DNA of 62,930 bases, counting the filler, from Collodictyon triciliatum (Eukaryota), in the NCBI GenBank assembly GCA_043381765.1. It is 5 parts of 5 records of this genome, joined end to end, with 100 filler letters (N's around TTAATTAATTAA, not from the genome) between each part and the next. Parts side by side here need not be neighbours in the genome. Positions count along the whole stretch, not along the records: positions 49,588 to 57,666 come from JBHJMP010000209.1; 4 more parts are not named here. One strand, written 5' to 3'. Below the pieces are notes generated by a model. That model worked only from the letters and a program-made list of their open reading frames with translations, was not told the DNA's origin and did no database searches. Every line of letters starts with the position of its first letter. Positions within the stretch are counted from its first letter, which is position 1. Below, in pieces: positions 4,290 to 62,930 of the stretch. A program made the position numbers and the translations under genes.

Positions 4290-4320
4290 TATCATCACCA
4301 TTATCATCACCATCACCATC

Positions 4321-4351
<31 letters not shown>

Positions 4352-4953: not shown

Positions 4954-10236
<5,283 letters not shown>

Positions 10237-25205: not shown

Positions 25206-25217
25206 TTAATTAATTAA
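25206..25217. other. Artificial scaffold-joining spacer TTAATTAATTAA (also at 34321-34332, 49532-49543, 57711-57722)
   Basis: Identical palindromic 12-mer with stops in all six frames, embedded in N runs, four times. Confidence 0.97.
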
Positions 25218-25305
25218 NNNNNNNNNNNNNNNNNNNNNNNNNNNNNNNNNNNNNNNNNNNNTGTATAGCTATCAATTGAGGTTTCTTCCATACATCTCCA
25301 TGCAG

Positions 25306-26930: not shown

Positions 26931-27617
26931 GGTGNNNNNNNNNNNNNNNNNNNNNNNNNNNNNNNNNNNNNNNNNNNNNNNNNNNNNNNNNNNNNNNNNN
27001 NNNNNNNNNNNNNNNNNNNNNNNNNNNNNNNNNNNNNNNNNNNNNNNNNNNNNNNNNNNNNNNNNNNNNNNNNNNNNNNNNNNNNNNNNNNNNNNNNNNN
27101 NNNNNNNNNNNNNNNNNNNNNNNNNNNNNNNNNNNNNNNNNNNNNNNNNNNNNNNNNNNNNNNNNNNNNNNNNNNNNNNNNNNNNNNNNNNNNNNNNNNN
27201 NNNNNNNNNNNNNNNNNNNNNNNNNNNNNNNNNNNNNNNNNNNNNNNNNNNNNNNNNNNNNNNNNNNNNNNNNNNNNNNNNNNNNNNNNNNNNNNNNNNN
27301 NNNNNNNNNNNNNNNNNNNNNNNNNNNNNNNNNNNNNNNNNNNNNNNNNNNNNNNNNNNNNNNNNNNNNNNNNNNNNNNNNNNNNNNNNNNNNNNNNNNN
27401 NNNNNNNNNNNNNNNNNNNNNNNNNNNNNNNNNNNNNNNNNNNNNNNNNNNNNNNNNNNNNNNNNNNNNNNNNNNNNNNNNNNNNNNNNNNNNNNNNNNN
27501 NNNNNNNNNNNNNNNNNNNNNNNNNNNNNGTCACTCACTCAGACAAACGCTATCATTCTCGTCACTCCACCCCTCTGCCTCCATAGCTGCTTATGAACTG
27601 CAACCATTTTTTCTCAG

Positions 27618-30600
27618 GGCGCAGGTGGGCAATACATCTACGCATGCACCTCGACCGGCGAGCCTGGCTTCGGACAACCGCTCACAGACTTGACCATTGT
27701 CGCTGCCTCAACTTCCTCTGTTCAGGTGTGCCCATCCCTGCACCTTTTGATGCAAACATCTCATGTCACGCTCTGGAATAAGGCAGAATTGACACTCCCG
27801 GGAAAGATTCCTCCAAATTCATATCACGCCATACCACCCCCTACTCTTCTTAGTGCCCTGCAGGATACACGCGCGTTGAAAAGGACTGCAACTCTGGTGC
27901 TCGCGGCTCTTATGTCTACTGGTGCTATCAAAGAGGAGGCGCCTCCGCTGTAACCAGTCTAAAGTTTGTTGTTGGCTCTAGTGTGTGCCCTGCCGACCAC
28001 GAGCTGATTCCCCAGAATATAAATCAGGTTTCTTCCCAGTTTTTCTTCCCATCTGACACGTTTCCTATGACATATTCAATCGTAGCTGACCGTGCACGGC
28101 TCTCAATCTGTCTCTAATACTCACTCATTTTCTCATCCGAACTGACTTCATAGGGCACATCCGGCCCGGCTATATATGCCTGCAAGCAAAAGGCGTGCAA
28201 TCTTCGATTCGAGACCTTGTCCGACCTGAGATTTAGGTCTTCCGGTGGATTTAGAGTCGTTCAGTTCTCTGATATTCATACTGGCGTCCCGGAGCCCGAC
28301 ATGAGCACCCAAAATGTAACATATCCGTCATGTTTCGATTTTCGTGCTGGATAATAAAGAGATTAACTGGATGCGTTTTTTTGCTCAATTGAAATTGTTA
28401 ATTCATACTCATCTCGACTAGGTCATGCGCCAGATTCTTGAACAAGAGAAGCCCGATCTGGTTGTCCTCAATGGAGATCAGGTAGAAAAAATATTTTGAC
28501 TGAAATACCAACGAATGGATTGTTTCGTATTTATATATTCAAAGACGTCGGCATCTATTGGCACAAAAAAAATATGCAAAGATAATTTTACATACTTTTT
28601 TCACTTGATTGTTTTATTCTACCTGATGGAGAGGCGACTAATATCTTCCTGTCTCGAAGGTATCTGACTACTCGTGGAATCGCGTCACTCGGCCATGGTT
28701 CCAAGGATTTTACGAACGCCTTTTGGATCCCATTCTAGCCGGAGGTTACCGATACGCTTTTGCAATGGGAAATCATGACCCAGGTAACTAAAGCCTTTAA
28801 ACTCCCAAAAAAAAAAAACCCCCCACTCTGAATACCAGCAATATGAACCATATGACTCACTCAATCCATAGCTTAAAATTCGAGATGAAAAGGCATTGAG
28901 GAGATACACCTAGATATTTTGAAATGATATCCAGGCAACTCCCCATGCAGCCCATCCAAATAAATTTAAACGGTTTCTATTATATTCACTCGCACACCTG
29001 TTGTAGGAGCGGACCTTAGCGCAGAACAAATCATCGCAGTCGATCAGAAGGCTGGGGGAGTCTTGTCCCTGACAAAACGTGGCCCCACAAACATCAACGG
29101 AACTACAAATTACGTCATCAATATTTTCTCATCTTCAGGAACCACTGAGGTGACAGGCCATGTGTGGGTTCTGGACTCCGGCGTCAGTAACTGCGAGGTT
29201 TTGTCACTTTATGCTCACTCTCAATTTTTAATTATTTTTTTATGGATTTGTTGAATATTCGAATAATTAACGTTGAATTAGTTTCTTAAAAGAACAAAAC
29301 ATAAAATTATCTGTTTACTATCACCGTAATCAACATTTCAATTATAATTGGTGACAATATTGCCTCTGTCGGTTTAGGGTGTCCGTGGGTATGGATGTGT
29401 TGAACGCGACCAAGTGGCTTGGTATCAGGAAACTGCAAATGCCCTACGTCGCCAAAATCCAAACAACCGCATCAACCCTGCCCTCGCTTACTTCCACATT
29501 CCAATGCAGGAGCACATGGAAGTAAATGATAAGTCCTTATGATGCTTGTTTTTATTTTGTTTTTTGTTTTTTGTTTTTTGTTTTTTGTTTTTTGTTTTTT
29601 GTTTTTTGTTTTTTGTTTTTTGTTTTTTGTTTTTTGTTTTTATTTTCTAATTTCTAATTTTTTTTTGTCCTAAATACAAAAAATAGGTTAACACTGCCTC
29701 TGAGTGCTACGGACGCAAGGAAGAAAATGTCTGCTGTCATTCTGTTAATACTGGGTATTTAGGATGATGAATTAATCTTTCTCTTTCGACTCTTTCGTAT
29801 GCTCGAACTTAACACTCGTATGGGAGAGGACGAACACTTTTGTCTCCCTTTTTTCCCCCTTTTTTTTCTCTCCTTTTTTTTCTCTCTCTCTTTTTTTTTC
29901 TCTCTCTCTTTTTTTTTTCTCTCTCTTTTTTTCTCTCTCTCTTTTTTTTTTCTCTCTCTTTTTTTCTCTCTCTTTTCTTGGCTAGATGAATTCTTAATTG
30001 TTATTTGATTGGTATATTCAATCCGCTTTATCCGCTTCAATATCAGCCTTTTTGATGCATTCAAGATTCAAGGTGATGTTCGGGCCATCACCGTAGGTCA
30101 TGGTACGCCCTTTATTGCTCAACCCTATAGATGACTAAATTATTTCGAAAAAAAAAACTCAGAAAGTGTGATTATTGTGCCACTGGGTTATTTAAATACT
30201 GTTCAAAATGCAGATTTGCTGACGGCCTAAAAGGCTACAAACAAGAGAAAAGAGGACATATCATCTTTAATAATTTAATGTGGAATAACCTAAATCTGCC
30301 ACCATACGCCCCCAATCAACCAGATCACAATATCGACTTTGTTGCCAAACTGGAGGGTATTTACGTGACTTATGGCCGCAAGTCTGGGTATGGCGGATAC
30401 GGTCCGCCAAGTGGCTGGCTCCTGGGCTCTCGTGTCATCGAGTTATTCGAAGACGGTATCTTTACACAAACTCTAATTGCCTTTTGTCCTTTGTGCTTGT
30501 AACTGTCATAATTATTCGGGTGATTCCCCCAACCATGAGAAATGCGTCTCGATGTAGGCTCTGTGAGTACTTGGATTCGTCAGCAAGACGGCTCCAAGAT

Positions 30601-30758
30601 TGTCCAAACTGAAAAGTGCAACTTTGGCGGACAGGTTTGAAAACGAATCGCCATAGCTTCAGAAAAAGCCTCTGCGACAAAACTCACATTAACCATGCTG
30701 CACAAAGGATCGTTGCTGCGGCTCTGTCAACACCGAATGCGAGCGTTGTGTGGTTTAG
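27618..30758 (+). CDS. MABP-like beta-prism + calcineurin-like metallophosphoesterase (DCR2 / plant PAP14-29 type), 5'-partial, ~11 exons
   Basis: Phosphoesterase motifs SDIH, VLNGDQ, GNHD, FHIP, GHDHN.D and GYGGYG...GSRVIEL. Upstream exons give GAGGQYIYAC..PLTDLTIV, CPAGYTRVEKDCNSGARGSYVYWCY and CPADHELIPQNINQGTSGPAIYAC. Confidence 0.87.
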
Positions 30759-31131
30759 ACGCTTTTCTTCACCCGCACTGCCGTTTGACAACACAGAAAT
30801 AAATGAAATGCCGTTGTTGGAAATAAATGATATCGCCATTAGTTTTTGTTTTGTTTTGTTTTGTGATTAATTATTTACACACAATTTTAAAAAAGAAGCC
30901 GCGTGTAATCACGCATGATGTTCTTTTAGTTTATTGTTGGTTGCTTTTATTCTCTCTTTCTATTGAACAACAATACTCCATCACTTGTGTTGGTTTCTGA
31001 CCACCAGCATAATCATGACATAGCCCACCACTTCTGTGTGGTGAACCCCGGTACAGCCAGAAAGAGAAAGAGAAAGTGCATGCGAGAGAAAGGAAAGCGT
31101 CCACCATGCAATGCTTCGGGGCTGTGGCACA

Positions 31132-32700
31132 TCAAAAATCATCGTCAGCCTCCGTGCCAAAGTCTGCGAACATGTTTGTAATCCTGGCTGAGGTTGTTGA
31201 TTTCGCAGCGCTTGGACGGGCTGGATGATTGTTTGGAAGCAGAAATGATTAAAGGGTGATGAATTCAAGCGGGCTACCCACACACCATCCACAGAGAAAC
31301 AAGAAAGGATTGGGTGCTAAGAGGCAAGATGGAAGAACAGGGTTATGAAGGGGAGTCTTCAAGTCATGCTTCCTCGAGCTTGTTCATGGGTTGTGCAAAG
31401 TAGAGAAGTGCACATACCTGCGGGAGTCACGGATGCCTTTGCGGCCCCGCCCGAGGACGAAGCCGGATTTGCAGCAGGCTCCTCCTCCTTTTTGGTGAAC
31501 CGAGAGAAGCGGGACGGCTGTGGCGGTGCCACCTCTGGTGGATTGGGTCGTGTCTGGCTTGGTTGGCTTGGTTGGCTTGGCTGGTTCTTCTGGGGTTTCT
31601 CGCCCGCAGCAAATCCTCCCGCGAATCGTGTAAACAGCGAAGATGACGGCCTACTCTCGACGCTGGAGTTCGGAGAGGAGTCATAGCTAGACAGTACGCT
31701 GCCTCCACCCGTGCTGGCTTTGGGCAAGGATTCAGGCGGCGGGCTCATCCGGTTCGAGGACTCTAGTTTCGGTAGCTCGGTGATGGAAAACGAGGACTCT
31801 GACTTTTGGGTTGTCTGTAAATGTGATGTTGAGTGAAGATATTCGGATAATAACGAATTAAGGGATGTATTGGCAAGGGTTGTTTTGTGAAGAGGAGCAA
31901 TGGCATTTTCTGGATGAACAGAGTTTCTTAAATGGCAACCTCTTTTGGTAACACGGGCTGAGTCTTCGGCGGCATTGCACTTCCTGCATTTGATGAAGAT
32001 GCCCCCGGTGTGGTGGTTGTGGTTGTTGGATAAAAAGTGTGTCGGATAGCAGAAACATCTCCAAACTGATATTCATCTACGGCACTCTGAATCATTCGGA
32101 CCAGCGGTGTTTTTTATACAAAAAGAATATCAGAATATAAGAGGGATTGGTCAAATAATCGTTGGAATTATTGATGATTTGACAACTATCTCAATTGATT
32201 TTTTCATGTTGAGAGGATGAGAGAAAGGGAATAACAAAACAAAGAGCGTAGGAGAACAAGAGCAGGGTAGATAAGCAGAGGGGAAAAGCCAGGATGAAAG
32301 AGGATGCAGGAACAGAAAAAAAAATTATGTGAGGCAATTAAATAAGCAAGTGATATGCCCACCTTTTCTGATGGTGCATTGCGTGTTTGTGAAGGGCTTC
32401 CCATAGAACTACTTGCTCTGATGCGGGTGTCAATTAATGCACACTCTAAAATTCTTAACAGTGGCTGAAATATATGCACAAAATCATATATGTGATGAGC
32501 TCAGAAAAAAGAGAGGGGGAGATTCCAGAATATATAAATACGAAATGTGTTACACTTTCGACCCAAGTCCAAGAGCCGAACGCAAAGATGGTGGAGCCAC
32601 TTTTGGCTGCTCCGTTTCCTTATCTTCACCAGACAGATTGGCAAGAATGGCAGCAGAACGTGCAGTCATTTCGACAGAACGTTGGGGTGTTTGCGGTTGC
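31132..32700 (-). CDS. Hypothetical Ser/Pro-rich protein, 3' part only (about 5 exons), ends MFADFGTEADDDF
   Basis: Open minus-strand exons with GT-AG boundaries and coding-like composition. The 5' end runs into the (AGATGT)n repeat and gap. Confidence 0.6.
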
Positions 32701-32729
32701 TGCATAAAGACAGGGATAGGTTTATTTGT

Positions 32730-32779
32730 ATCCTTAAAATATATGTTTCCTTAATTCGATTGAAATCCTTAAAGTATAT
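32730..32779 (-). mobile_element. Ultra-short retroelement insertion with 15-bp TSD (1 mismatch)
   Basis: ATCCTTAAAATATAT - GTTTCCTTAATTCGATTGAA - ATCCTTAAAGTATAT. Confidence 0.7.
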
Positions 32780-32830
32780 ATCATAGATCAGATATATGGG
32801 ATAGTTTGCCAAAATATTCGATAGTTTATT

Positions 32831-32979
32831 AGATGTAGATGTAGATGTAGATGTAGATGTAGATGTAGATGTAGATGTAGATGTAGATGTAGATGTAGAT
32901 GTAGATGTAGATGTAGATGTAGATGTAGATGTAGATGTAGATGTAGATGTAGATGTAGATGTAGATGTAGATGTAGATG
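32831..32979. repeat. (AGATGT)n hexanucleotide microsatellite
   Basis: Perfect tandem array abutting a gap. Confidence 0.95.
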
Positions 32980-33138
32980 ANNNNNNNNNNNNNNNNNNNN
33001 NNNNNNNNNNNNNNNNNNNNNNNNNNNNNNNNNNNNNNNNNNNNNNNNNNNNNNNNNNNNNNNNNNNNNNNNNNNNNNNNTTTACTCTTTTTTTACTCTT
33101 TTTTTACTCTTTTTTTTCTCTTTTTTACTCTTTTTTTT

Positions 33139-33206
<68 letters not shown>

Positions 33207-33353
33207 CTTTTTTTTTCTCTTTTTTTTACTCTTTTTTTTACTCTTTTTTTTTCTCTTTTTTTTACTCTTTTTTTTACTCTTTTTTTTACTCTTTTTTTAC
33301 TCTTTTTTTACTCTTTTTTTTTACTCTTTTTTGAACTGTTTCGGTCATGTCAG

Positions 33354-46838: not shown

Positions 46839-49310
46839 TTAATCCGGAGGCCAACGTCTGCCGTTCACGTCCGGCTGCGAATGTACAACGTCGACAGCCC
46901 ACGGGTCGTCTTCCTCGTTGTAGCCCTTTGGTTCCAGCGAGTACGGTATCGGAAGGTAAATCCGGACGGTGGGTTTGGTCCTTGCGGTTGATGAGGAAGC
47001 TGCTCGGGTTGTCCGAATCAAAACAAAAGAAAAAAAGGAAAAGGAAAAGGAAAAGGAAAAGGAAAAGGAAAAGGAAAAGGAAAAGGAAAAGGAAAAGGAA
47101 AAGGAAAAGGAAAAGGAAAAGGAAGATTCATGGTAAGTAAATGCGAGGCCATTCGAAAGAAGGTCACAGTCGCGGTGCTGGTAACAAGAAAAAGAAAATA
47201 TGAAAGTATATTGTGCTTGTTTAAAACCACAAACCAATTGGTATATCCTCGTGTGTATCTTGCAGGATGACTTTATGCTTCAGTTCGCCTTGTGGACCCC
47301 CAATGTAAGTGGAGAGAGGGTTGTCTGGTGTGCAGCTAAATGTCTGTTTAATCTAGAGCATTGAAGGATACATATTAATCAGAATAAGACATTTATAGGA
47401 AAACAGAATTTCGACCGATACAGTTGCATTTGCCCAAGAGCTGAATGCATTGGATGTCATGAATTTACAATACAATTCCTTTTGGTGTATACATCCCGAC
47501 GCATCATGCATAGATGTATTTTTCGTAAGATGGGGAATGGTGCTTACAATCCCATATTTGAATTTATCAGGAGTGACCAGAACGCCTAGTTCATACGAGC
47601 GGATGAAAAGTTGTGTGCGATCTTTTTGCAAAGATCCCCAGGCAGCCTTATTTTTTTCCAAAAACAGTTAATGTCTTATTTTTTTTTTTAAAAAAAAAAA
47701 AAAAATAGAGCTAAATGACTTTGCAATGGGCTGAATTATTTACAGGGGGAATGATATCAATTAAATTGTTCAAAACAGATGATATTGTCGTAGAGGCACC
47801 TTGCTGAGGTTATGTGAACCTGTGTAAGCCCAAAAAATACGATGCCTCTTGTGGCATATTATTGTTTTTATATGAGGCATCTGAGGGTATTAAAAAAATC
47901 AGTAATCTTTTAATACATAATGATACCAATTTTTCTTTGAGAAAAGGGAGATGAAGGAGCATAGACCGCGCGCTCTCTTTCAACAGCGCCCCCACTTCGA
48001 CCTAGGATACCAATACCACCGTCCCAAGAAGCCAAAGAATCGTTGGGTTCTTTATTTTTATTTTAGAAAAATGATCAAGAACCATGCTTAAAATATTGAA
48101 TCGTTGGCTATTCCGATTTTTAATTCAACTTTCAAATAATACCCAATGACTGCAATAGTTTCTTCACGAAATCTAGTTTCACTGGAATTGAACTGCCTGC
48201 TATGTATCCCTCCAGTGACAAACGCACCTGACGAATTCTCAAATTAACCATAAAAATGTGATTAAAAAGAAAGGATAAAAGGGAGACCGGTTTCATGTCA
48301 CTTGGAGAAAGCCTATGATTAGGTTAAGGCTATAGAATATATGATAGGGGAAATTATATGAAAAATATATAAAATTCAAAGAAAAACTTGTTCCACTGTA
48401 GGATATATGAACCATCTACAAACTCTTCCAGTTTTTGATTGCGTAAACGGATTTGACTGTTTTCTTTTGATTGGATTTACAGATGCCATTATTTCCTCCC
48501 CTAGCCATTTCTTGTCCATTGAACCCAAGCTATGATTTTTTATGATCCGAAAGAAAAAAAATTACTATTATTGATGAAAATATAGGAACAGCAGAGTTGA
48601 TCATTCCGCTCTAGCTCATATCAGCAAAATATTTTCCTTTTTTTTAAAAAAAAAGATCGTTAACCTGGATGATTGAAATGTAAATTCTGGGGTTGGTTCT
48701 TCACTATCCTCTATTTTAGAGAGCAGGTTCCTAAGTTTCATATGGCCCCAACTGCGATAACAAGCATGCTTAAAAGAAATACACACTACATTTTATAAAG
48801 GATAGATTGGTACCTCCTTATCATTCAGACAATTAAGAGAAACTATTTAATATGAGATGGGTCATAGGGGATGTTCAAGTTTTTCTCCCTTTTCAATCTC
48901 ATCATACTTGTCTTTTGCTTGAAAATGGGTCCCTGGGGTTGATGCAATCAAATCTACATTTGCATTAGAATAGTCATAATGACTCAGCTTCCGAACATCA
49001 AAATCCGGTATTTTTAAGGATGCAAAATAAGCCAGCAGGTCCACCTTAATGTTCAATTTGAAAAAAAAATCATTAATATTGACCAGTATAGCACAGTCAT
49101 TGTGGGAATTTTTTGGATGAGCCTTCAAATAAACCTATGTATAATAGTTTTTTTTTTCAAGGGAACCTCAAAATCGGATTTGCTCTTATCTTCTGAACAC
49201 TTTCTTGGGAAATCTTGAACCCAAATACTCTGCGTCTTATTGTACCAGTCTTGAGATAGCAGGTTTGCTGAAAATATAGAGATTCTCACTCCAGTCGGAT
49301 ATAGGAGAAC
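46839..49310 (-). CDS. TDP1: Tyrosyl-DNA phosphodiesterase 1, 5'-partial, multi-exon
   Basis: SANLLSQDWYNKTQSIWVQDFP, LIASTPGTH, WGHMKLR, QSSSLGS, IYPTVEQVR.SLEGY.AG.SIP, RAMPHIKT, GSHNLSKAAWG, IRSYELGVL, PIPYSL and PD..G..W. The first HK motif is lost at the scaffold end. Confidence 0.95.
47037..47123. repeat. (GGAAAA)n microsatellite in a TDP1 intron
   Basis: Tandem hexamer array. Confidence 0.95.
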
Positions 49311-49587
49311 CTTTTATTATGTTTGTTTCTTTGTTTTTATCCATTTATTATACCACTGTTATCCTTGGTCTCTCTCTCTTCTTTTTTTTTTTTTTTTTTA
49401 ATAAATTATTTTTTTTTTTTTTTTTATTTTTTTTTAATTTCTAAACAACATTTTTTAAATTAAAATATACATTTTTTTTATTAAAAANNNNNNNNNNNNN
49501 NNNNNNNNNNNNNNNNNNNNNNNNNNNNNNNTTAATTAATTAANNNNNNNNNNNNNNNNNNNNNNNNNNNNNNNNNNNNNNNNNNNN

Positions 49588-49684
49588 TCTCCTACTCGCG
49601 TTTGCTCTCTCCCATGCGCTCCCATCCCGCCCCTTTGTATGGCATAACCTCGCTACACTTTGAATCGAATAAAGGAAAAAAAAA
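49588..49684 (+). mobile_element. Non-LTR retroelement 3' end, copy B (at scaffold start)
   Basis: CTACTCGCGTTTGCTCTCT...GTATGGCATAACCTCGCTACACTTTGAATCGAATAAAGG(A)9, shared with copies A and C. Confidence 0.85.
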
Positions 49685-51139
49685 ACAACAACATATGGTA
49701 AGTAGAAAGCAATAGTGAGGCGAATGAAGAAATTGCAATCCAAAGGAATCAATCAAGTGAGGGTCTCATCAAGGAGTTAGGGCAAAAGTTCGCAAGGCAA
49801 CCGTGGTGGATAGCAAAATAACTAATGGGCTGATAGTTATTTTCTTGAACAAAAAAGAAAACAAAAAAAAATAAGAATTGAGAAAAGAAAAAAAAGAAAA
49901 AAGAAAAAAGGAAAAGAAGAAAAGAAAAAAGAAAAAGAAAAAAAGAAAAAAAGAAAAAAAGGAAAAGAAAAAAAAAGAAAAAAAGAAAAAAAGAAAAAAA
50001 GAAAAAAAGAAAAAAAGAAAAAAAGAAAAAAAGGAAAAAAGGAAAAAAGGAAAAAAGGAAAAGAAAAAAAGGAAAAGAAAAAAAGGGAAAAAGGGAAAAA
50101 GGAAAAGAAAAAAAAGGGGGGGTTGGTTCGTTGGGGAGGTGATGGCGCCAAGTGTTTTGCAGACCCCTTTGGAGTCCGGCCAGCAGGACATCTTGTGAAG
50201 GAATATCCTATCTGAAACCCGAGTGCGAATCTGGGAGTGGAAAGAATGCGCCAGGCAAAGACGATTTGGCGTGGTGACCTGGCTATGAGGCACGGGTACG
50301 CATATGGCATCCTGGCGCAGTTAAAACACAGCCCATGGACGACTAAGTTCCGGTTGGAGAAGTGTTCCTCCCAGACCACAGGCTCAGGCGAAAGAGGGAT
50401 TGCTCCCCGTTTATTACTGAATGTCCTAACGGACCGACTACTTGGCGGTCGTGTTACTGCGCCGCTAAATTTGAAATTCTGGTGTACGAAGTAACACGTC
50501 AGCATAGCACCTTTTTCCCAATGAACTTATCCCCCCACGTCAATGTGGATTCAAGGGGCTATATAAATTGTTGCTTGGCTGGTCGTGACTGTATTATGGG
50601 TTTTATAGAGAATGGTGACATAAGGGAGTCCAGCCTTTTTGGCTTTTTTTTTAATCTTCCTTTCAATTTTTTTCTGGGTGGTGGAGGTGTTGGCTTTCGT
50701 TCGCTAGACATCGTTTGCATGGACGCTACTTGGTGGCCGGGCGGCAGAGAAGTTGTCGGTAACCAGGAATCCTTCTTTTTGGCTATTGGGAGGTTGGGTC
50801 TAATCTCCTCTCGTGAGAGGAAGCCATTTCAAGGGCGGGGCGTCGTTTTGCAGGCAAGGTCCATCGACCTACGTGCCTTCGGTGGAGTTTAATCGGAATA
50901 TGTTATTGAGATAAAGAATGAAGCGCTCACAAACATATAATTGGCGGCAGGACTCGCAAATTACGGCTTAACGCGCTTCCTATTTTTTTTTCTTATTTTT
51001 AGGCAAAACACAGTATCTGGAGTGCAGTTTGAAAGATTAAAAGCTTCGGAAGATCTTTTTCTCCTTTACCCTTCAGTATTACATATCCCATTATTTTGCT
51101 TCATTATCTTAGTTGTTATGTTCATGCTCTCCAGAAGAG

Positions 51140-51376
51140 AGATGTGGGAATGTGTCGTGCGATATCTCCTACAGCATACCCAACCCCTGCTGCCCACGCA
51201 ACCAATCAACCAGTTGGGACACCCGCCTGACCAACTCGCTATCACTGATTTCTTACTGGTGCTAGCCTCTCCACAGTAGTGTCTTCTACTCGCGTTTGCT
51301 CTCTACCATGCGCACCTATCTCGCCCCTTTTGTATGGCATAACCTCGCTGCACTTTGAATCGAATAAAGGAAAAAA
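51140..51376 (+). mobile_element. Non-LTR retroelement 3' end, copy C (longest, diverged; 5' boundary approximate)
   Basis: Aligns to copy A from 51226. Encodes MWECVVRYLLQH...QLGHPPDQLAITDFLLVLASPQ* with the stop at the same position as copy A, then the shared 3'UTR and poly(A). Confidence 0.8.
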
Positions 51377-51617
51377 GAGTTTCTTGCCTCAGTTGGGGCA
51401 AAGGTTTTTTTTTAAAAAAAAATTTTTTTTTTAGGGCTTATATATCCTAAGCCACCAAAATATTAACCAATATCCCATACACTCACAAAACTTATGCATA
51501 AGCCAAATCAAAATCACAGAATGCAAGATTTTAATGCGTGTGAGCAGCACCCAAGCATATTTATGTCATGGGTAAATCTCCAGCATATTCAGCAATCTTT
51601 AAAAAGGTGTGCTGCAG

Positions 51618-53764
51618 TTAAGAAAACTTCAGCGTGGCTTGGTTCAGGGAGTCTTGTAAACTAGGTTGGGTATTTGCTTTAAGCCAAGCTATGCTCTTGT
51701 TTAGCATCAAAACCCATCTGTCCTTGAATTGCAAGAGTTTCGACTCGATGAACTTGATTACCACACTTGTGATGAGGACGTTCTCGGGAACTACAGAGGT
51801 GGTGCATAAATTCATATTAGATTTTTCTTTACAAAAAAAGGCAAATAGCTACGTATTTTTATCGTTCATAAGCCCACGTTATCAGTAAGAGCATACAGTC
51901 GGCATACGTGATAGTCGTTGTGATTCTATGCCCACAGCAGTGAAATCTATCTCGATCAGGAGACATATCTCTGCCGTAAGAACCCAGTACCCCGCGGCTA
52001 ATATGTGTTCATAATATATCAATAGTTAAAACAGAAAAACCGACATGGTCATTTTACATACCTTTCTGGAGCTCGGTAATTTTGCGGAGAATCATATCAG
52101 GGGTAGGTTTCGATACAACGGGGGTAGATGAGGAGGACTTCGAAGCTTCGCTAGACCTTGGTCGGGAAACACTCCATGAAGATGCAAAGCTATCGGAATT
52201 TTCCTCCCTTTATCCCAGCATACACATTTCATGATAGGTTAATCAAATGAGCAACATGGGATAGGTTTTGAAATAGAAGTAATCAACCTTGGTAACCTGA
52301 TAAGTATTCAGAATAGTAGTTTTGTTCAACCTTTCTTTTGGTGCGTCCTTTTTCTTCTCAACCATACTTTCTTTGCGTAGAGGTACTGAGTTTACTGCGC
52401 TGGGGACAGGAGAATATCCCACGGAATACCTCGTCCTAAGGCCTCCTCCACCACGTGATGCAGGAGATGATGAAAGAGAAACTGCAGATTCCTTCATCAT
52501 AGAACGGGGTGCTGCTCTGACTAGAGACAGTGTAAATTAACAATGGAATATCTACACAATTTTAGATATAAGGTTAATATAGGGATCATATGTAACAATA
52601 AAAATATAGTAGTGCTTTTTCGCTAATATTTCTACGAAGTTACAGATTCATATTTACACACATACCAGATTTCGATTCCTCCACAGGCTGAAATTTTTCA
52701 ACTTTGATGACAGGGGTTCCCTATCACGCGTTCGTATTAAGTTACAATTATGTGTGTAATTCGAGTGAGAAGCGAGTAGCTTAGATGGGTAAGTGTAAAA
52801 AACCAAAAATCCCAAAAAACCCAAAAAACCCAAAAAACCCAAAAAACCCAAAAAACCCAAAATCCCAAAAAAACCAAAAAAAACCAAAAAAAACCAAAAA
52901 AACATCAACAGCTAGATGGCGAGTAAGCTCGAAATTACTTCAGGATTTTTTGTCGAAACGCCGATAAATGATGTCTGAGAAGACATGACTGATGTCCTGA
53001 AATACAAAAAACAAGAAAAGCAATCAGGAATTTCCTTTGAAACTAAATGCGAGCTTAAAACTTCTGGTAAAGGCTACACTAATAGAGTCAAAAGAGCTCA
53101 CTCAAGAGAAAGAGCTTTTGCAGCTAATTTTGATCCACTATTTTGAGATGCGTCAAGTGCCCTATAATTTGGTATATGAGTCACATATTCATTCCTTAGC
53201 TTCATAGTGATATCGAAGGGGCCTTGCATAGATGATGTATATCTGAATATACATGATTGGTATGCTGATGACAACCTGATTCTCTGCAGTGCTGCTTGAC
53301 GAACAACGCTTCCATGCAAGGTGCTCCTCTGACTAAAGTCAACTAGAAGAAAATATTGGAACTTAAGCAAAACCGTCGATAAGAAATGAAAAACCTAATA
53401 AAACTCAAAAACAACAACGCCAAAAGTACAGAGCAACTGTTGAGGTACTTACCATAAGAAAGAAAAATCAATAAAAATGGGGTTAAAAAATATGAGGGGA
53501 GGGGCACATCAAATTGATATTTACTTTCGATTGGGAATTCCAGAGCGCGATTGCCGAATTTGCCATTCACTTTGATGACCTCCTAATTATTATTTTTCGA
53601 GACATTAGATCTGAATAAAAGAATAATTTTGGAGACAAAATACAACGTTATATTCTTCTTACCTTTCCAACTTTATTTTGTAGTTTTTGGGAATCAGTCA
53701 ATCCATAGAATGTCATTCGCACAGAATCAAAAATATAATCGATATTGGCAGGTTCAAGCACATA

Positions 53765-53844
<80 letters not shown>

Positions 53845-56800
53845 NNNNNNNNNNNNNNNNNNNNNNNNNNNNNNNNNNNNNNNNNNNNNNNNNNNNNNNN
53901 NNNNNNNNNNNNNNNNNNNNNNNNNNNNNNNNNNNNNNNNNNNNGACAAAAGACAAAAGACAAAAGACAAAAGACAAAAGACAAAAGACAAAAGACAAAA
54001 GACAAAAGACAAAAGACAAAAGACAAAAGACAAACAGAAAAGAAAAAGAAAAAAAGAAACAGAATGACCACATGGATATGGAAGATATGTAAATGAATTT
54101 CATCAGGCACAGTTAACTTAAATTCAGCAAAAACCATGTGATTATCCACCACTCACTTTAGAATCTAATTCTTCCCCCTCTACAACAAATTCAGCTGTTC
54201 CCTGCGAGAATAGGATAAAGGATGAAGATTTTATAGGGGAACCAAAAACAACAAAACAACAAAAAAGAAACCACCACCACAACAACACCAACAAAGGAAA
54301 GTCAAAATAAAATACAATCGTAAATTGAAAAGGATTAAACTCCGATATCTTATGGGTTACCCTCGCAGCTTTCGCCAATCCACGAACTAGATGATGGGAG
54401 ACCCCGTTCCCAATACCGAAAGTGTATATTCTAGTAGTATCTGCCATCGATTTTCCAGCTGCAATAACCTTTGAGAATAACATAATATTAGATGCAACAA
54501 GAGAGCGAATAGGAGGGAAAAACAACAACAAAAAACAAGGAGTAAGAACAGAAATTGCTGTCTCTTACGAATGAATTCCTTCGTTTTCCTTTTGCATTAT
54601 CTTTCTAAATAAATTATGCAGGGGTTGTCAAATGTATAAAGCTTCAAAACCTGTTCAGTGTTACTGACGCTGCCATCTGTTAAGAGAAAGATGTTTAAGA
54701 GTCGCCCCTAAAAGAAATACCAAGTCATCAGATGAAGTTTCTGTTGAAAAAAAAGAAGTGAAAACATGTGAATTTCGGATTCATCATATATTCCTACAAA
54801 ATAAAAGATCACATAGTTTTCTCTTTTATTAAATAAAATAAAATGAAATAAAATAAAAGCACATATCATTTGGATGAGTGATAAGAAGAGGGGATTCATG
54901 ATAGGATTATCAATATTCAGTTTTTCAGTTATGTTACTTCTTTTTGAAGTTTCGATCTGATATGATTCAAAGGCTGCAAGAGTTCAGTTCCGCCCAAATC
55001 AGCATCCATGGATTTGCAAAACTCCGAAGCTTTATCCACACTTACTTCATTATAGACGACTGCTTCGGGAAATAGGCTTTGAAAGGAACTCCTGAGTGGA
55101 TAAGATTTTGGTATTTCTCTTATTGCTGAAGGAGACATTGGAGGAAAATGTAAACATTCATGCCAAATAATCACAATTTGATTGTATAAACAAAAAGGAA
55201 AGAAAATATATTCTATTGACCCGAATCCAAGTATGTTGAACTTGCAGTCGATAGGAAGTGACCTAAGGAACAACATCATTGTATCCCTGACTTGGCTTAT
55301 TCGACTCCCAGACATAGAACCTTTTGAAAGATGGTGAATTTTTCATATGATTAAACATTTGCCAGAGCAAAAATTAGAATTGAAAGCAAACATACATCAG
55401 TTATGCATTTTTGGACACCAATTTATTTCAATATTAAGTTTTTTTTCCCTTTATTCGATTCAAAGTATTTCAATATTAAGTTAATGGTATGTACCGCTTC
55501 TATCGATTAGAAAAATGTAATCAAAATTGGATGAGTCTTGGACGTCTTCAGGTTCAACAAACTTGGGGTTAAACGAGACACATACAGCCGATTTAGATTC
55601 CAAGGTTTCCACCATTCTTTGGGTCAAACAAATGTTTTTGGGCGATTGTTTAGAGAACATTATGCATGACAGCATACCAATTTATGTATGTTAAATTATC
55701 AGAGCTTTATATTACGTTATCGTCTCATGTGGGTTTTCAAGGATGATACTCAAGATGTAATCCCCCTTCCAAGCCTTTTCTTTTTCGCTTAGGCTAAGAG
55801 AGAAGATGAACCCCTATCGTAATTTCGCTATCAATATCAAAGGAAAACTTAATGTATCCTTTATATTGATGCGTGTATAGAACCAATTAAAGGAGAAAAA
55901 AAACCATTCATGCGTTTTTGAGAGTTTGAATGGAGCAAAGTAAAGCACTAAAATTTTGATAGTGAGGGCACTTTCATTTCTTAGTGTCCGATTAAAATAA
56001 AAAATATGGTTCATATACATAGTATGGAACATTACCCTAGCGACTTCTGTTGTATCAATATTATAAGTGAGACAGTCTATACGTGAAATTCTTGATGTGC
56101 TTTCGATCTGGTTGATTCAACATATAATTTAGTCGATAATTACCTAAAAATGGTTTCTTATTTTGAATGCATGGGAAAAAAGTAATTATTTTACTATCAA
56201 CAAACTTTCGCTTCGATCTTGAAGTCAAACATCTTGGCTTGAGTTTTGGAGGATTCTGGGAGGGTATATGCATCACTATATCCAGCAGGAGAGTATTTGT
56301 TGGGCAATAGCGTCGGAAGAACAAATCGTAGATTGCTTTCTGTCAAGATCATTTTTTTTTTATTGATATCGGCACAATAAAAAAAAAATTCCTTTATCCG
56401 ATTTCGGCACAATAAAATATGAAAATTAAATAAAGGCGTATTTATATTTTTTTTTTTTTAAAAAAAGAAGGCAAATTCACCTTCGTTGATGAGTGGAGTA
56501 AAAAAGCGAACACAAGTCTTCACATAGCCTCCTGGACTGATGTTACCGATAGACATGACAAGATTTTCTTGCGTTTCTAGTTTATCATGCACAAGAATTG
56601 AAATTGGGAATATCTTATCTTACGGGTTTGTCATAAAATAAAGGTGGTTCATTCGCATGAATGGCCAAGGGAGGAGTGAAACTGGCCCTATCCCTCAGCA
56701 GAAGGGTAAAGTGCAAAACAAAAACATCCATACTTTCCTCCATCAAAACTGCAGTGTTTCCTTGTGCGACAGCATCCTGGAATTCTGATCGAGCTACTGC

Positions 56801-57467
56801 AGAATCCCTCAGGACTGCTCGGAACGTATCATTCGATGTCACGATATCCAGAGCGTAAACACATGAATTTGGATCGATGGGAAATGAGTAGCTATAAGTA
56901 AAAGAAGATACAGATTCAAAATTAAACGGTAGAAAAGGCAGCAGAAACGAAAGCATGCACCAATAAACTGGATGAGAATCTGCGCTAGCATGATGATAAA
57001 TCAAGTCTAATAGCATTTCGTCTCTATTGACAGACTTACAAACAATCAGCCGGAGATGTGAGCGGGTTGGTGTACGTTTGGTTCAGGGTCACGTCAGCCA
57101 CAGAGTTAAGAATACTTATCTAATAAAAAAAAAAAAAAGAATACTTATCTAATCAAAGAAAAACTATAGATGAGATATAAGGAGGTACATTAATGATTCG
57201 TTCCGTGTCTTATCAACGTCACAGAAGATCAGTATTTTAGTTAAATTGCTTTCACTTTTTATGTGATATTTAAAATCCATTCAATTACTTTTGACAGTTT
57301 TCTTTTTAATTTGCGCACAGTTGATCTATAACTTTTTTTGCAAACGGGGTTTACTTTTGCACTTAATAAACACAGGAGATCAAACAATAAGTAATTAAAA
57401 ATACTTGAACATCCATTGTGGCGAGGACGAACTCCTCTGAAGTCTTGATGCAACAGATGCGAGCCAT
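51618..57467 (-). CDS. VIT + von Willebrand factor A domain protein (VWA5A/BCSC-1-like), multi-exon
   Basis: VIT: VADVTLNQTYTNP..YSFPID...ARSEFQDAVAQGNTAVLMEE, LRFVLPT. VWA: FLIDRS/GSMSG (MIDAS split by an intron), FNILGFG, ADLGGTEL, FLLTDG, RIYTFGIG, GTAEFV. ATG at 57467. Confidence 0.9.
55424..55482 (-). mobile_element. Ultra-short retroelement insertion (25 bp) with perfect 17-bp TSD
   Basis: TATTTCAATATTAAGTT - TTTTTTCCCTTTATTCGATTCAAAG - TATTTCAATATTAAGTT. The insert is the reverse complement of the element terminus. Confidence 0.88.
56369..56417 (-). mobile_element. Ultra-short retroelement insertion with 14-bp TSD
   Basis: TCGGCACAATAAAA - AAAAAATTCCTTTATCCGATT - TCGGCACAATAAAA. Confidence 0.75.
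57108..57153 (+). mobile_element. Poly(A)-only insertion with perfect 17-bp TSD spanning a splice acceptor
   Basis: AAGAATACTTATCTAAT - A12 - AAGAATACTTATCTAAT. Confidence 0.75.
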
Positions 57468-57766
57468 TTAGCACTCGCCTTTTGGCTTCCTGTGGAGATT
57501 TTCAGAGGCGATAAGAGTGTATAAGGGATAAATAGAATCAATAAGAAAAGAAAAAAAGAAAAAAAGAAAAAAAGAAAAAAAGAAAAAAAGAAAAAAAGAA
57601 AAAAGAAAAATAAAAGAAAAAAGGAAAAGAAAGAAGAAAGAAGAAAGAAGAAAGAAACAAGAAACANNNNNNNNNNNNNNNNNNNNNNNNNNNNNNNNNN
57701 NNNNNNNNNNTTAATTAATTAANNNNNNNNNNNNNNNNNNNNNNNNNNNNNNNNNNNNNNNNNNNN

Positions 57767-58018
57767 TATATGCTTTTTATATGCTTTTTATATGCTTTTT
57801 ATATGCTTTTTATATGCTTTTTATATGCTTTTTATATGCTTTTTATATGCTTTTTATATGCTTTTTATATGCTTTTTATATGCTTTTTATATGCTTTTTA
57901 TTTTATTTTTTTTGTTTTTTTGTTTTGTTTTTATTTTTATTTTTATTTTTATTTTTATTTTTATTTTTATTTTTATTTTTATTTTTATTTTTATTTTTAT
58001 TTTTATTTTTATTTTTAT
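57767..58018. repeat. (TATATGCTTTT)n 11-mer array followed by (TTTTTA)n
   Basis: Tandem arrays read directly. Confidence 0.92.
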
Positions 58019-58928
58019 TGACGAAAAGTTTTTAAGCTACATTTGATTTGTTTTAGTTGTTCTTGATTCCCCTGTTATTTTCTTTTGATAAGCTTTGAAT
58101 AGTCATGTGTATATTTTCCCTTTTCATGCAAGAAATCCTTTACTGAGTATCAGCCTTTTAGCAAAGCAGGTAAATGAACAACCACGCACCATAAACTATT
58201 TACATACTACACATTTCCATGTTGACCTCAAAAGTTTCTCAAACGGCAAAAAAAAAAGTGCTTTTGTTTATGAATAACTACCATTTTGATTTGCTATTAA
58301 TTGAACTCCTCTTTTTCTTAAAGAATGTAAAAAAGAAAAGTAAAATTTTTACCATAAATATTCATTATAATTGTCTCTGTGTGTATACACATGGCCATGC
58401 TATGTGAAAGCATATTTATATTTTGGAATATACGCCACCGTAATAATGAACTCCTACCTCATACTAACTACATCTTTGACTTCACTGCCCCATCTTTTCA
58501 CTTTGGCTTCCGCCCATATACATCCATGTAAAATAAAATAATATATTTTTTTATTTTTATATGTCTGACTCTTTTATTTACATTCACGGCGTCATATGGT
58601 AACTCTATTTTTTCTTTTTTTCTTTTTTGCACGGATATTTTAATTTAATATTTGAATTGATTTCATTTAATTCTCTTTCCTGTTATTCTAAAACGCCGTA
58701 ACTTTTAAATTCATGCAATATATTCATCAAAATGAAAATCATTCCATGACATTCATGTGTGTTTTGTACCATCACCATCGAATTCACTCAATACTTTAAT
58801 TTTAACTGGTGCAAAGAAGAGTAGAAAATATGGAAACTCAAGGTTTTGCATTCACATTCAGAATCATTACTATCAGATACTCTTTTGGATGACATTATTT
58901 CAGTATTAAATATTGCATAAATCACAGA

Positions 58929-61900
58929 TATTATGGAGATTTCCATCCAATGTGACTTGGAAGCAGAGTTGGAAGAGATGGAACGACAACGAGTTGAAAA
59001 GGAAAAGAAGCTCGCCGAAGAACGAGAGCGTCAGCGAATCATACGTGAAGAACTTCGAAAAAAGCACGAGCTTGAGCAGCGGCGTGTCGAAGAAGAAAAA
59101 AGAAACAAGCTTGAGCAGGAGCGCATTGAGCGGCAAAGAGAATACGAGCAGCGCCGCAAGCTGCAAGAGCAGCAAGACCTCATCAAAGCCAAAGAACTTC
59201 AGTACAAGCTTGAGATGCAGCGCAAGAAGCTGGAGATCCAAACGCAGCGCAACAAGGAGGAACGCGACAAAATCGAAAAGGCCATCAAGGAGAAAAAAAT
59301 GGCTGATAAGCGCAGACGCGAGGAGGAGTTGGAACGCAAGAAGGAAACTACGGAGGTCTACAAACGCATGGCCGTGGCCCAAATGGATCAGATCAAGGCC
59401 ATTCTGGCGGCTGCTCCTCCACCACAAAAGCCCATCAGTGATGATGTACTTACACGGCGCGATGATGCAAGCCCAAGAAAATCTCGCATATCTCGCTCAA
59501 GTTCTCGTTCAAGTTCTCGTTCAAGTTCTCGCTCCAGTTCTCGCTCAAGTTCTCGCTCAAGTTCTCGTTCAAGTTCTCGTTCAAGTTCTCGTTCAAGTTC
59601 TCGTTCAAGTTCTCGTCCAAGTTCTCGTTCAAGTTCTCGCTCCAGTTCTCGTTCAAGTTCTCGTTCAAAATCATCATCATCCAAAGACAACTCTCCCCCA
59701 AAAACGACACCAGCAACCAGGCAGCCTTCTCTCCCACCAAATGCACCTGCTGCACAATGGCAGCAAAAGAACCCTGCAAACCGTGTTTCAGCCTCACTTC
59801 AGCAAATCCGCCCCAAATCATCAGTCTTCAAACTGACCCCTGCTGCGCCAACGCCCAAACAAGCACAGCTGCTGCCCGATACAAAGCACCAGCCCAGCGC
59901 AAAAGTTGTGCAGAAAAGCACGTTTAATTCTCTCCAAAGTGGCCTGCTTCAGTCAAAACCGACGAGGCACCTTGTCTGGCCCAAAGAAATCTTGCCTCCA
60001 GCCCTTCCCACAGACGTCCTTCCGCCCGGTGTTGATTCTGAGATTGCCCCAGACACGGCAGAGTTAGTGTCAATCCAAACTTTTGGCAACCAAAACACTT
60101 CATTCCTGGGAGCTTTTGTCGATGCGCCGTCAAAAATAACTGCGACTCCACCTCCGGTCCCTGTCCCTTTTGCGGAGAAGGAGGCTGATTTGGAGCGTAA
60201 CATACGCACACTCAAAGGCGAATCAAACATCCAAGCGAAAGAAACAGATACTCTCATCGCAGATGAATTTCTTGGGATACAAATGGTGTCTGATTCACAG
60301 GATATTCAAAATAGCTCGGCCAATCGAATCGCTACAGAACATACGGTAAGAGAGGAATACGTCGAGACCATCTTTAGTATGGATGGGCCGGTAGACACGA
60401 AGGAAAACAAAAAGCATCCAACGATTTCCGATACTTTAGTCGAGGAAAATGCAACAAAAGTTGCAGATGTAGTCGTCTCTTCTGTAGAGATTCCTTCGGC
60501 TCTTGACAAATCGAACTTGACACTGAGTGCTGATCTTGAGAAAGCCTTTGACCATGGTGCAAAAGCCCTCCAAGAACAAAAAACAACTCATGTCATTAGT
60601 CCGTCTGCCACAGATAGTGCTGCAATTCCAGCTCGACTGAATGATGAAAGTATACTTTTCACTGAGTGCCCGGCTCCTTCGACCCAAATTGAAGAACCGT
60701 TTGTTTCAACCTCTAATGAAAGTGGCAGTTTTTTAATGTCGGCAGGAAATGCAGAATCTTCCGAAAAAGATACTACAGATGTAGTTATTGACAAGTCGGA
60801 TGCAGTGGGGGAAATGCGTATTGCCCACATTGAACAACCTGTGGAAAGCAAGCCGGTCTATGTGGCACATCCACACGCCACCGAGGCAAGAAAGAGAGAT
60901 GTTATAGATGAAGAGATGATGCTCGATTATGGCGATCCGTTGGATGATTTTTCATTCAACACTTGTGCTGCGCACAAAGAGAGTCCTGATGAGCTTCAAC
61001 GCATTGGTATTTACTCTATTTATTTTTTATTTTTTCCAGGGCTTGTTAATATTTGTGGAGTATCTGTGAGATACACTATAAGGCTCTGTAAAATAACTCT
61101 GAAACTAATTTGCATCAAATGCGTACCTTATATATCTTGGCAGATAATCCGGCAACATCTGAGCCTATTAGCTGCATCCAGACTTTGTTTGTCGCATTTA
61201 CTGAATACTTTGATATTCAAATCTTACTATTTACTCTATCTGTATGATTATCATACCTGCATAGTACAAATAATTAAATTGAGTATATTTCAGCCACATA
61301 GCATGCCCGCAAGAAAAAGAACAAGAAGGCATATCTGCGTCTTCGAATTACCCAGCAGAAAGTACAGAAATATCTGGCGAGTAAATATATGTTTAAAAAA
61401 ATTATGAAATTTAGTTATAAATGACTCCAAAATGTAGTAGTCCCCTACCAAACAACCAGCCTTTCAGACACACCCCGTCGAAGTGGCACAGATGAAAAGA
61501 CTGAGCCTATCTGCCAACAACCAACCCTTCAAGACGGCGTGTAAAAGCATCTGCATTTATCGAAATACACTTCAAATACGCTTTGCAACACTAATCTACA
61601 AAAATAACATTCAAGCGAGCTGCCTGAAGTTGCCATGCAGACACAGGACGAAAATCAGCCCTCACAAATTCCAACGAAAGCTGCAATTGTCGGAGAAATA
61701 CCTGCCCAGCCACTGGGGAATGGCTCCACCTCGACGAACGCCCGTTTGCAATCAACAGTCAACGTAGCATTTCAAATGCCGGCTGCGCCCGCGAATCCTT
61801 TAACACCTGCAAATTATATGATGCCCGCAAATCCCATGACGCCCATGATGTCCATGTTTACTCCCGGTGCTTGTCTCATGTGCGGTCAGGTAGTTAAGTA

Positions 61901-61945
61901 CTTTGAGTTTTATTTTATTTTATCATTATTCTTTTATTCGTGATT

Positions 61946-62016
<71 letters not shown>

Positions 62017-62116
62017 NNNNNNNNNNNNNNNNNNNNNNNNNNNNNNNNNNNNNNNNNNNNNNNNNNNNNNNNNNNNNNNNNNNNNNNNNNNNNNNNNNNN
62101 NNNNNNNNNNNNNNNN

Positions 62117-62182
<66 letters not shown>

Positions 62183-62798
62183 TCTTCCTTTCAACTTTGT
62201 TCAGGACCGTGGGGGTAAAGGCTGGAACTATAAGAATGATGTCATTACATTTATTTTGATTACTTGTTTATACCAGCGGCAATTTTTTGAAATCATGACT
62301 ATGCGTAGGTTGGTGGGCATCACCCAACGTGCTTGGTAGGAAACCCACAGCTGCAACAATTATTGATGCTCCAGGTTTAATGCTTAATCGATATCTTCCA
62401 CTATATAATGAAAATTATCATGTGTTGATAAACATAGTGCTCATAAATGTTCAAAATTAGGTGTATTCACCCCGATAAAAAAAAAACATCTATTATACAT
62501 CCCACCCACCTTAACTCTCTGTAACCCGATGTCATCACCCCACAAAAGGCTCTGCAGCAGATGATTCACGGCATGAACCCCCTCCATGGCGGAATTGGGC
62601 TGCAGAGTCCTGTTTATCCGCAGCAGATGCCTACGTTCCACCAGAGCCCAACACAAAGCGCGACGCACTTGCACAGCCCGGTCCCGAGCCCCAATGTTCA
62701 ACTTCATCAGCAACTCCATCAACAACAGAGCCCCGCCACCGGCTCTGTGACTCAACAGCTTCCTGCCGTGGCCCAAAGCAGCCCCGAGACAACTGCAG
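58929..62798 (+). CDS. Hypothetical large protein: charged E/R/K coiled coil, (SSSR)n tract, long disordered region; extends beyond the window
   Basis: Open ~2.1-kb exon 58929-61006 (preceded by CAG, followed by GT) and further coding-like exons to 62798. The true start and the phases of the 3' exons are uncertain. Confidence 0.7.
59491..59667 (+). repeat. Coding 12-bp tandem repeat TCAAGTTCTCGY encoding (SSSR) x ~14
   Basis: Tandem units with mostly synonymous third-position variation. Confidence 0.93.
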
Positions 62799-62836
62799 GT
62801 TTCGATTCGACACAGCGCCACAAGTGCACCGTTGTT

Positions 62837-62930
62837 TTTTGTTTGTTTGTTTGTTTGTTTGTTTGTTTGTTTGTTTGTTTGTTTGTTTGTTTGTTTGTTT
62901 GTTTGTTTGTTTGTTTGTTTGTTTGTTTGT
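62837..62930. repeat. (GTTT)n microsatellite
   Basis: Perfect tetramer array running to the window end. Confidence 0.95.

Follow-up and report, generated by a model that had tools for sequence, protein, structure and literature searches.

A micro-insertion in an intron of Collodictyon triciliatum

We analyzed a window of 62,930 bases (37% GC; 2,652 N and 60.3 kb of non-N sequence) from the genome of Collodictyon triciliatum (GenBank assembly GCA_043381765.1), which carries a set of ultra-short insertions corresponding only to the 3' terminus of a long interspersed nuclear element (LINE). Four identical linkers are present (25162-25261, 34277-34376, 49488-49587 and 57667-57766), each made of 44 N, TTAATTAATTAA and 44 N and containing stops in all six frames, indicating that the window consists of five separate scaffolds joined together (1-25161, 25262-34276, 34377-49487, 49588-57666 and 57767-62930) and that neighbors across a linker are possibly not neighbors in the genome. 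Freshwater metagenome DNA contigs gave near-exact matches to parts of the window.

The focal insertion lies on the fourth scaffold within a multi-exon gene on the minus strand (~54356-57100), which was confirmed by spliced RNA-like contigs of two coded runs (X1 and X2) and has at least nine introns of 98-230 bp with GT..AG borders (CT..AC on the plus strand). It occupies positions 55441-55465 in intron 55319-55492 and reads TTTTTTCCCTTTATTCGATTCAAAG, the reverse complement of C, TTTGAATCGAATAAAGG, G and a tail of A6-8. On each side it is bordered by TATTTCAATATTAAGTT (55424-55440 and 55466-55482), a perfect duplication of 17/17 positions. A shorter piece of the same LINE terminus was found at 56383-56403 (minus strand), also in an intron. 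Both copies are in the sense orientation of the gene, and each brings an AATAAA hexamer. The original prediction placed such insertions mostly in introns; spliced RNA contigs support this location for these two copies and for these only.

Short copies of the LINE terminus are in excess and are flanked by duplications

Searching the window for TTTGAATCGAATAAAGG at ≤3 mismatches yielded 11 matches against 0.60 expected, an ~18-fold excess that was reached in 0 of 100 shuffles. A search at ≤4 edits was non-informative, with 19.9 matches expected per shuffle. The 11 matches comprised the ends of three long repeat copies (41185, minus; 49659, plus; 51354, plus), seven stand-alone matches (1292, 11152, 11504, 32749, 33779, 39171 and 55448, the last being the focal copy) and a doubtful one at 8958, which has no A-tail and whose duplication gave p=0.02-0.15. 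Together with the copies at 9807 and 56383, the sample amounts to about nine short copies.

The copy at 11152-11175 (plus strand) has an exact 17-nt core followed by G and A6, with a gapped duplication (11132-11145 and 11176-11190). Two core mismatches, an A4 tail and one extra A at the 5' junction were found in the copy at 11504-11524 (plus), the duplication of which reads AATAATTGT and AATAATTAT. Two core mismatches are likewise present at 32745-32765 (minus; motif match at 32749), which has a short tail and the duplication ATATACTTTAAGGA and ATATATTTTAAGGA, and at 39165-39188 (minus; motif match at 39171), where the core is followed by G and A5 and the terminal C of the duplication also matches LINE position -18. 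An old copy at 1283-1310 (minus; motif match at 1292) reads CTTGAATCAAATACAGG plus GAAGAAAAA, with two extra bases at the 5' junction, and lies between 1264-1282 and 1311-1329. It has the variants CTTG and CA in common with a core-only match at 33779-33795 (minus), which reads CTTGAATCAAATAAAGA plus AAAA. A decayed copy at 9807-9830 (minus), (T)CTTTAATCAATATAAGG plus AATAAA with indels, lies between 9798-9806 and 9831-9839. The shorter piece at 56383-56403 consists of AATCGGATAAAGG plus AA and then a T-run, and it recurs in independent DNA data, on a contig of run X3 where the A/T run is longer. A tail of 3-8 A follows the core in eight of the nine short copies, the exception being 56383, and divergence ranges from exact to ~18%. 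Some contigs of runs X3 and X4 match only the tail plus core and then continue into AT-rich non-LINE sequence near 55467-55468 (loose-end snippets), which hints at further micro-copies elsewhere.

Flanking duplications were evaluated by an anchored ungapped test against 3000 and a gapped test against 4000 random non-repetitive control sites. Microsatellite and low-complexity tracts are very dense in the window, often beside N gaps (for example 4240-4660, 6590-6970, 33100-33320, 45760-46100 and 49880-50120), so that ~3% of random sites give spurious "duplications"; repetitive flanks were therefore excluded from the controls. In the ungapped test, the duplications at 55448 (17/17), 32749 (13/14), 1292 (15/19) and 39171 (14/18) were each reached by 0/3000 controls. 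The gapped test gave p=0.0008 for 11152, p=0.0008 for 9807 (9/9), 0/4000 for 56383 (14/14), p=0.004 for 39171 and p=0.0008 for 1292. The duplication at 11504 (8/9) was borderline (p=0.0013 ungapped, p=0.02 gapped). Seven short copies are thus flanked by duplications at empirical p≤0.004, and duplication length varies from 9 to 19 bp. The ends of the three long copies, which served as negative controls, showed no duplication (p=0.36-0.87).

A motif-blind scan for perfect direct repeats of ≥9 bp, 8-80 bp apart and outside tandem arrays, kept 37 pairs, only three of which were ≥14 bp. Two of these belong to the focal copy and the 56383 copy. The third (57108-57124 and 57137-57153; AAGAATACTTATCTAAT) is a perfect 17-bp duplication around an insertion of A12 alone at 57125-57136 (plus), with the nick context GTT/AAG (the slash marks the nick). 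Of the 218 A-runs, no other had a non-repetitive duplication. It lies on the same scaffold as the two youngest micro-copies, 0.7 kb and 1.7 kb from them. The nick context was TT/AA at 4 of 10 sites (55448, 1292, 39171 and 57125), and T or C preceded A at 7 of 10, in a small sample in which the ambiguity between A-tail and duplication biases the A side. The preference of L1-type endonucleases is TT/AAAA.

These results bear out most of the original prediction, which had described ultra-short, duplication-flanked insertions of a LINE terminus on four of the five scaffolds and in both orientations, at a density of about 1 per 7 kb in this window. The perfect 17-bp duplication of the focal copy, the degenerate one at 11152 and the 9-bp one at 9807 were found as predicted. 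The duplication at 32745 was recovered at 13/14 rather than as 15 bp with one mismatch. At 56383 the predicted 14-bp duplication held, and the insertion proved shorter, with only 9-13 nt of the LINE tail. Among the copies listed as more decayed, 1292 and 39171 have duplications that, like the one at 32745, no control reached in the ungapped test.

A region at 12531-12572 contains 9-bp repeats, TTTAATACA, around TGTATAAAGGGAAACGATATATAT. It may hold a 9-10-nt tail piece of the GGG type (12540-12563, plus; GTATAAAGGG plus AAA, then CGAT(AT)n), the tail of which would have been altered by (AT)n, an assignment that is uncertain.

The core is the 3' end of a putative poly(A)-type non-LTR retrotransposon

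TTTGAATCGAATAAAGG followed by A6-A10 forms the 3' end of three longer repeat copies in the window. The copy at 41176-41334 (minus) is at least 159 bp long and is cut by an N gap at 41335, and that at 49588-49684 (plus) is at least 97 bp long and begins at the first base of the fourth scaffold. The copy at 51134-51376 (plus) is an ordinary 5'-truncated one of ~243 bp, 92% identical to the metagenome contig described below, with an A6 tail and no clear duplication. The long repeat is visible for only ~100-243 bp in the window because the scaffolds break inside it.

A metagenome scan for the exact 17-mer gave at least 118 loci; among the matches listed, 117 were chance matches, mostly without an A-tail, and one, contig L030, was the LINE. 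This contig of 1157 bp contains an open reading frame (ORF) of 202 aa that is open at its 5' end, followed by ~430 nt of 3' untranslated region, the motif and A10, and the long copies in the window are 92-99% identical to it. The ORF matched the Pfam domain zf-RVT (PF13966) with 32.4 bits (cut-off 27.5; E=1.5e-07), and its nearest Atlas clusters are zf-RVT as well. The zf-RVT domain sits C-terminal in LINE reverse transcriptases (RTs). Judged from this ORF and from the 3' untranslated region ending in the motif and A10, the long repeat is therefore classed as a poly(A)-type retrotransposon without long terminal repeats (non-LTR), that is, a LINE. No longer relatives of the L030 ORF turned up in a search, and a scan of viral contigs for the motif plus tail gave 0 matches.

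At the LINE 3' end (for example 41176-41248, minus), the terminal AUAAAGG pairs with an upstream CC-UUUGU ~40 nt away, a 7-bp long-range helix in the fold of a four-copy alignment, with no covariation and an energy that is not significant.

The 5' ends of the short copies cluster at positions -17 and -18

The 5' boundary was scanned by anchoring on the last 9 nt of the LINE plus A-tail and extending against the LINE. The anchored scan gave lengths of 17, 17, 17, 18 and 19 nt and then long copies only, with none at 20-45 nt; at 11-16 nt it gave only a low-complexity 15-mer (16404) and a 16-nt match without duplication (38578). A blastn search of L030 against the window found no intermediate fragments, and lengths from 20 nt up to the ~100 nt or more of the long copies are unrepresented. 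Eight of the nine short copies, including 1292, 33779 and 9807, start at T(-17) or C(-18), and 56383 starts between -13 and -9.

Random truncation was simulated with 20,000 sets of 10 copies, counting the sets with ≥7 starts in any 2-nt window. Such clustering arose in 2.8% of the sets under an exponential model with a mean of 5 nt, in 0.07% with a mean of 10 nt and in 0% with a mean of ≥20 nt or a log-uniform distribution. The exponential model with a mean of 5 nt is unable to yield three copies of ~100 nt or more. The gap in the anchored scan and the failure of the smooth models thus argue against a smooth distribution of 5' ends in this sample, in agreement with the clustering originally described. 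The ratio of micro-copies to long copies is inflated by under-assembly of the latter, since an assembly gap or the end of a scaffold borders two of the three.

At the junctions at -17/-18, microhomology was 0-1 nt (1 nt in 2/7, about the chance level), 1-6 extra bases were present in 4/7, and the duplications were mostly 13-19 bp. At 56383, the shorter copy, the junction shows 3-4 nt of microhomology, and the duplication reads 17/18 if the AATC involved is counted.

Several causes of the boundary were rejected. Microhomology was ruled out by the 0-1 nt at the junctions. The CTTTG...TAAAG hairpin that the original prediction had proposed within the micro-copy did not hold up, with -0.3 kcal/mol and 111/200 shuffles folding at least as well. 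A ribozyme or other RNA family received no support from Rfam, which gave no match at the gathering score in the window and, in L030, only two sub-threshold chance matches to long non-coding RNAs. ARAGORN found no tRNA-like element upstream of the boundary in the window or in L030.

Origin of the micro-copies and of their fixed 5' end

The A-tails and the variable 9-19 bp duplications make up the signature of target-primed reverse transcription (TPRT) that the original prediction had recognized, and the TT/AA nick context at some of the sites is suggestive of the same process. We consider the micro-copies very probably genuine retro-insertions made by the endonuclease and RT of the poly(A)-type LINE. 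The LINE endonuclease would nick AT-rich DNA, often at TT/AA, and the RT would use the A-tail of its own element's RNA for priming and copy only the last 17-18 nt of that RNA, after which the product would be sealed between the staggered nicks, leaving the duplications. Because the copies range from exact to ~18% diverged, they have in all likelihood accumulated over a long period as by-products of LINE activity. The A12-only insertion with its 17-bp duplication at GTT/AAG was left by the same machinery.

The junctions at -17/-18 suggest run-off to the end of a template rather than internal truncation, because they have little microhomology, carry 1-6 extra bases in 4/7 and adjoin duplications of mostly 13-19 bp. 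In a study of human L1, full-length junctions had fewer microhomologies than truncated ones (PMC2912911), and another report gives the most discrete duplications, 12-18 bp, for full-length L1 insertions (PMC11702581). Our tentative preference is that the sharp end arises because the template itself ends there, as a 3'-terminal fragment of the LINE RNA, which we infer from the junctions. Such a fragment might result from cleavage, or from an exonuclease that stops at a protein-bound end, and would then be copied to its very 5' end, with rarer earlier aborts producing the A12-only insertion and the 9-13-nt pieces. The more specific idea that LINE transcripts are cut to release a polyadenylated RNA of ~18 nt from their ends, which the LINE enzyme copies in full time and again, is rather doubtful. 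Taken as a whole, the two-layer explanation, LINE-derived TPRT products with a boundary set by the template end, is plausible while falling a little short of probable.

A number of observations weigh against this explanation. The sample is small, with 60.3 kb yielding about nine short copies. L030, at only 1157 bp, does not reach the parts of the LINE in which RT and endonuclease domains would lie, and neither domain was observed. The copy at 33779, one of those predicted to be decayed insertions, has no detectable duplication (p=0.5 in the gapped test, 0.2-0.5 overall). That at 11152 combines an exact core with a decayed, gapped duplication, and six unmatched bases separate the two. No empty-site allele was seen in the DNA contigs, none of which bridges 55441-55465. 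At old junctions, what count as extra bases may belong to the duplication and have mutated, rather than having been added. AAAGGG precedes the tail in 4/9 short copies (4/8 without 33779, which reads AAAGA), and AAAGG precedes it in 4/4 longer LINE copies, three in the window plus L030, a difference that is not significant (Fisher test, calculated by hand, p ~0.14); the sampled LINE copies may accordingly not be the source. Finally, a weak predicted hairpin in the LINE RNA has its 3' base exactly at -18, which fits a stalling RT.

In the stalling alternative, the RT copies the AT-rich last 17 nt of intact LINE RNA and stops at a fixed obstacle that begins at -18, and the aborted cDNA is end-joined. 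Candidates for such an obstacle are the foot of a small stem-loop, a protein on the RNA (for instance the RNA-binding part of the element itself) and the switch to GC-rich sequence. In the predicted hairpin, -39..-33 is paired with -24..-18, and the diverged copy at 51354 keeps the pairing through a U-A to U-G change. GC content jumps at the boundary, from 29% in the last 17 nt to 58% in the 60 nt upstream, and the long copies show that some RT molecules get past the site. Against this, the hairpin has only -2.8 kcal/mol and is equalled or bettered by 29/200 shuffles, folding of the LINE's last 155 nt shows no gain over shuffled sequence (z=-0.48), compensatory changes are found in 0/14 pairs, and the junctions have none of the microhomology usual for internal truncation. 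We regard stalling on intact RNA as possible but unlikely, and run-off on an RNA fragment is favoured over it.

A self-propagating lineage of micro-retroposons, in which a discrete 18-nt polyadenylated RNA is copied in trans by the LINE RT and the micro-copies descend from one another, appears improbable, and so does a supply of its RNA from transcripts ending in an existing micro-copy or from a dedicated source locus. It would explain the discrete 5' end, the extra bases at some junctions, and variants absent from the four sampled LINE copies, namely GGG before the tail in 55448, 11152, 39171 and 1292 and CTTG plus CA in 1292 and 33779. But 18 nt is too short for a promoter, the tRNA-like head sought with ARAGORN is absent, and read-through transcripts would give variable 5' ends with host sequence, of which none was seen, the duplications abutting the core. 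Changes of CG to CA are recurrent at CpG, and unsampled LINE subfamilies can account for the variants, only four LINE copies having been sampled. The GGG and CTTG/CA variants could mark either unsampled subfamilies or a separate micro-lineage.

Ordinary random 5' truncation, with the cluster arising from a 17-mer search in a small sample, is less probable still. Shorter products do exist (A12 alone, the possible 9-10-nt piece and the 9-13-nt piece), the window holds an ordinary truncated copy of 243 bp, and copies under ~14 nt are hard to detect after decay of their duplications. Yet the scan anchored on 9 nt gave five copies at 17-19 nt but no convincing one at 11-15 nt, the range of 20-45 nt being empty, and smooth models almost never put ≥7/10 starts in a 2-nt window. 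It is hardly credible that no retro-insertion is involved and that the copies are instead chance matches, artefacts of amplification or assembly, or short tandem duplications containing filler DNA. The assembly in the window is indeed fragmented and microsatellite-rich, and an alternative reading of 56383 is a tandem duplication of 18 bp with a spacer of 17 nt. Yet the motif is ~18-fold more frequent than in shuffles, one core with an A-tail recurs on four scaffolds in both orientations and at different ages, the 56383 insertion is present in an independent DNA run, and the core coincides with the LINE terminus on an unrelated contig from a metagenome.

Other features of the window

An intronless glutamine synthetase ORF lies at 16808-17896 (minus) and has 69% GC against 33-39% in its flanks. 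Its best match was an unnamed JGI protein (95%), its nearest named relative was that of Diphylleia rotans (81% identity), and oomycetes and plants followed at ~65%. On the evidence of this single gene, the host would probably be a freshwater protist of a little-studied kind. One open frame of 1154 aa at 21056-24520 (minus) has, by eye only, the look of a leucine-rich-repeat protein. In the literature searched, we found no description of a retrotransposon from the group of Diphylleia rotans.

Comparison with known systems

Human orphan 3' transductions and poly(A)-only L1-mediated insertions are sporadic and variable in length and are not known to form a recurrent class with a fixed boundary. 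The micro-copies have in common with them an extreme 5' truncation that spares little or nothing of the element, and the A12 tract at 57125-57136 is an insertion of this kind. The micro-copies differ from footprints of DNA transposons and from miniature inverted-repeat transposable elements in that the core is no inverted repeat (-0.3 kcal/mol) and the duplications, at 9-19 bp, are not of fixed length.

With truncated insertions of L1-type elements (poly(A) tail, apurinic/apyrimidinic (APE) endonuclease), the micro-copies have in common the A-tail, the 9-19 bp duplications and the derivation from the 3' terminus of a zf-RVT element. A TT/AA-like nick context occurs at 4/10 sites, and the same window holds an ordinary truncated copy of 243 bp. 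The broad continuum of 5' truncation of such elements was not found here, where stops occur without microhomology and none lies from 20 nt to ~100 nt. Human L1 truncation is broad, with a median of 712 bp for de novo insertions in one report (PMC11702581), whereas most of the present copies stop within 1-2 nt at 17-18 nt.

Like the tailless retropseudogenes outlined in the L1 study (PMC2912911), the micro-copies are very short and duplication-flanked, with ends that would reflect discrete RNA fragments. Tailless retropseudogenes have no A-tail, are truncated at the 3' end and stem from structured non-coding RNAs, whereas the micro-copies have A-tails and come from a LINE terminus without significant structure. 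With short interspersed nuclear elements (SINEs), they have in common a discrete 5' end and a LINE-shared tail, the core being the last 17-18 nt of the LINE, and, very probably, mobilization by the LINE enzyme. The ~18-nt unit differs from SINEs in that no RNA polymerase III head or promoter was found with ARAGORN or at the Rfam gathering score. The micro-copies therefore fall outside the definition of SINEs for want of a promoter head, and outside that of tailless retropseudogenes on account of their A-tails.

We found no description of a recurrent class of fixed 17-18-nt length in the literature searched, a search that left out subscription journals and supplements. A stop fixed at 17-18 nt of template would give a naturally occurring record of how TPRT begins, and could reflect a minimal template, a processing site of the LINE RNA, or a barrier between initiation and elongation, all of which are hard to see in genomes with smooth truncation. 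At about one copy per 7 kb, each planting an AATAAA hexamer and an A-run, the insertions would amount to a sizeable mutational load that is probably overlooked by ordinary repeat annotation. Going by the shared GGG and CTTG/CA variants, micro-units may form lineages of their own.

The mechanism class is known, namely TPRT with extreme 5' truncation. If a discrete ~18-nt RNA is indeed copied, ≤17 nt plus poly(A) would suffice for this RT to select a template and copy it, and the micro-copies would be the smallest retroposon unit described. Platy-1, called the shortest known primate SINE in its description (PMC4864456), measures ~100 bp, against ~18 nt for the unit reported here.

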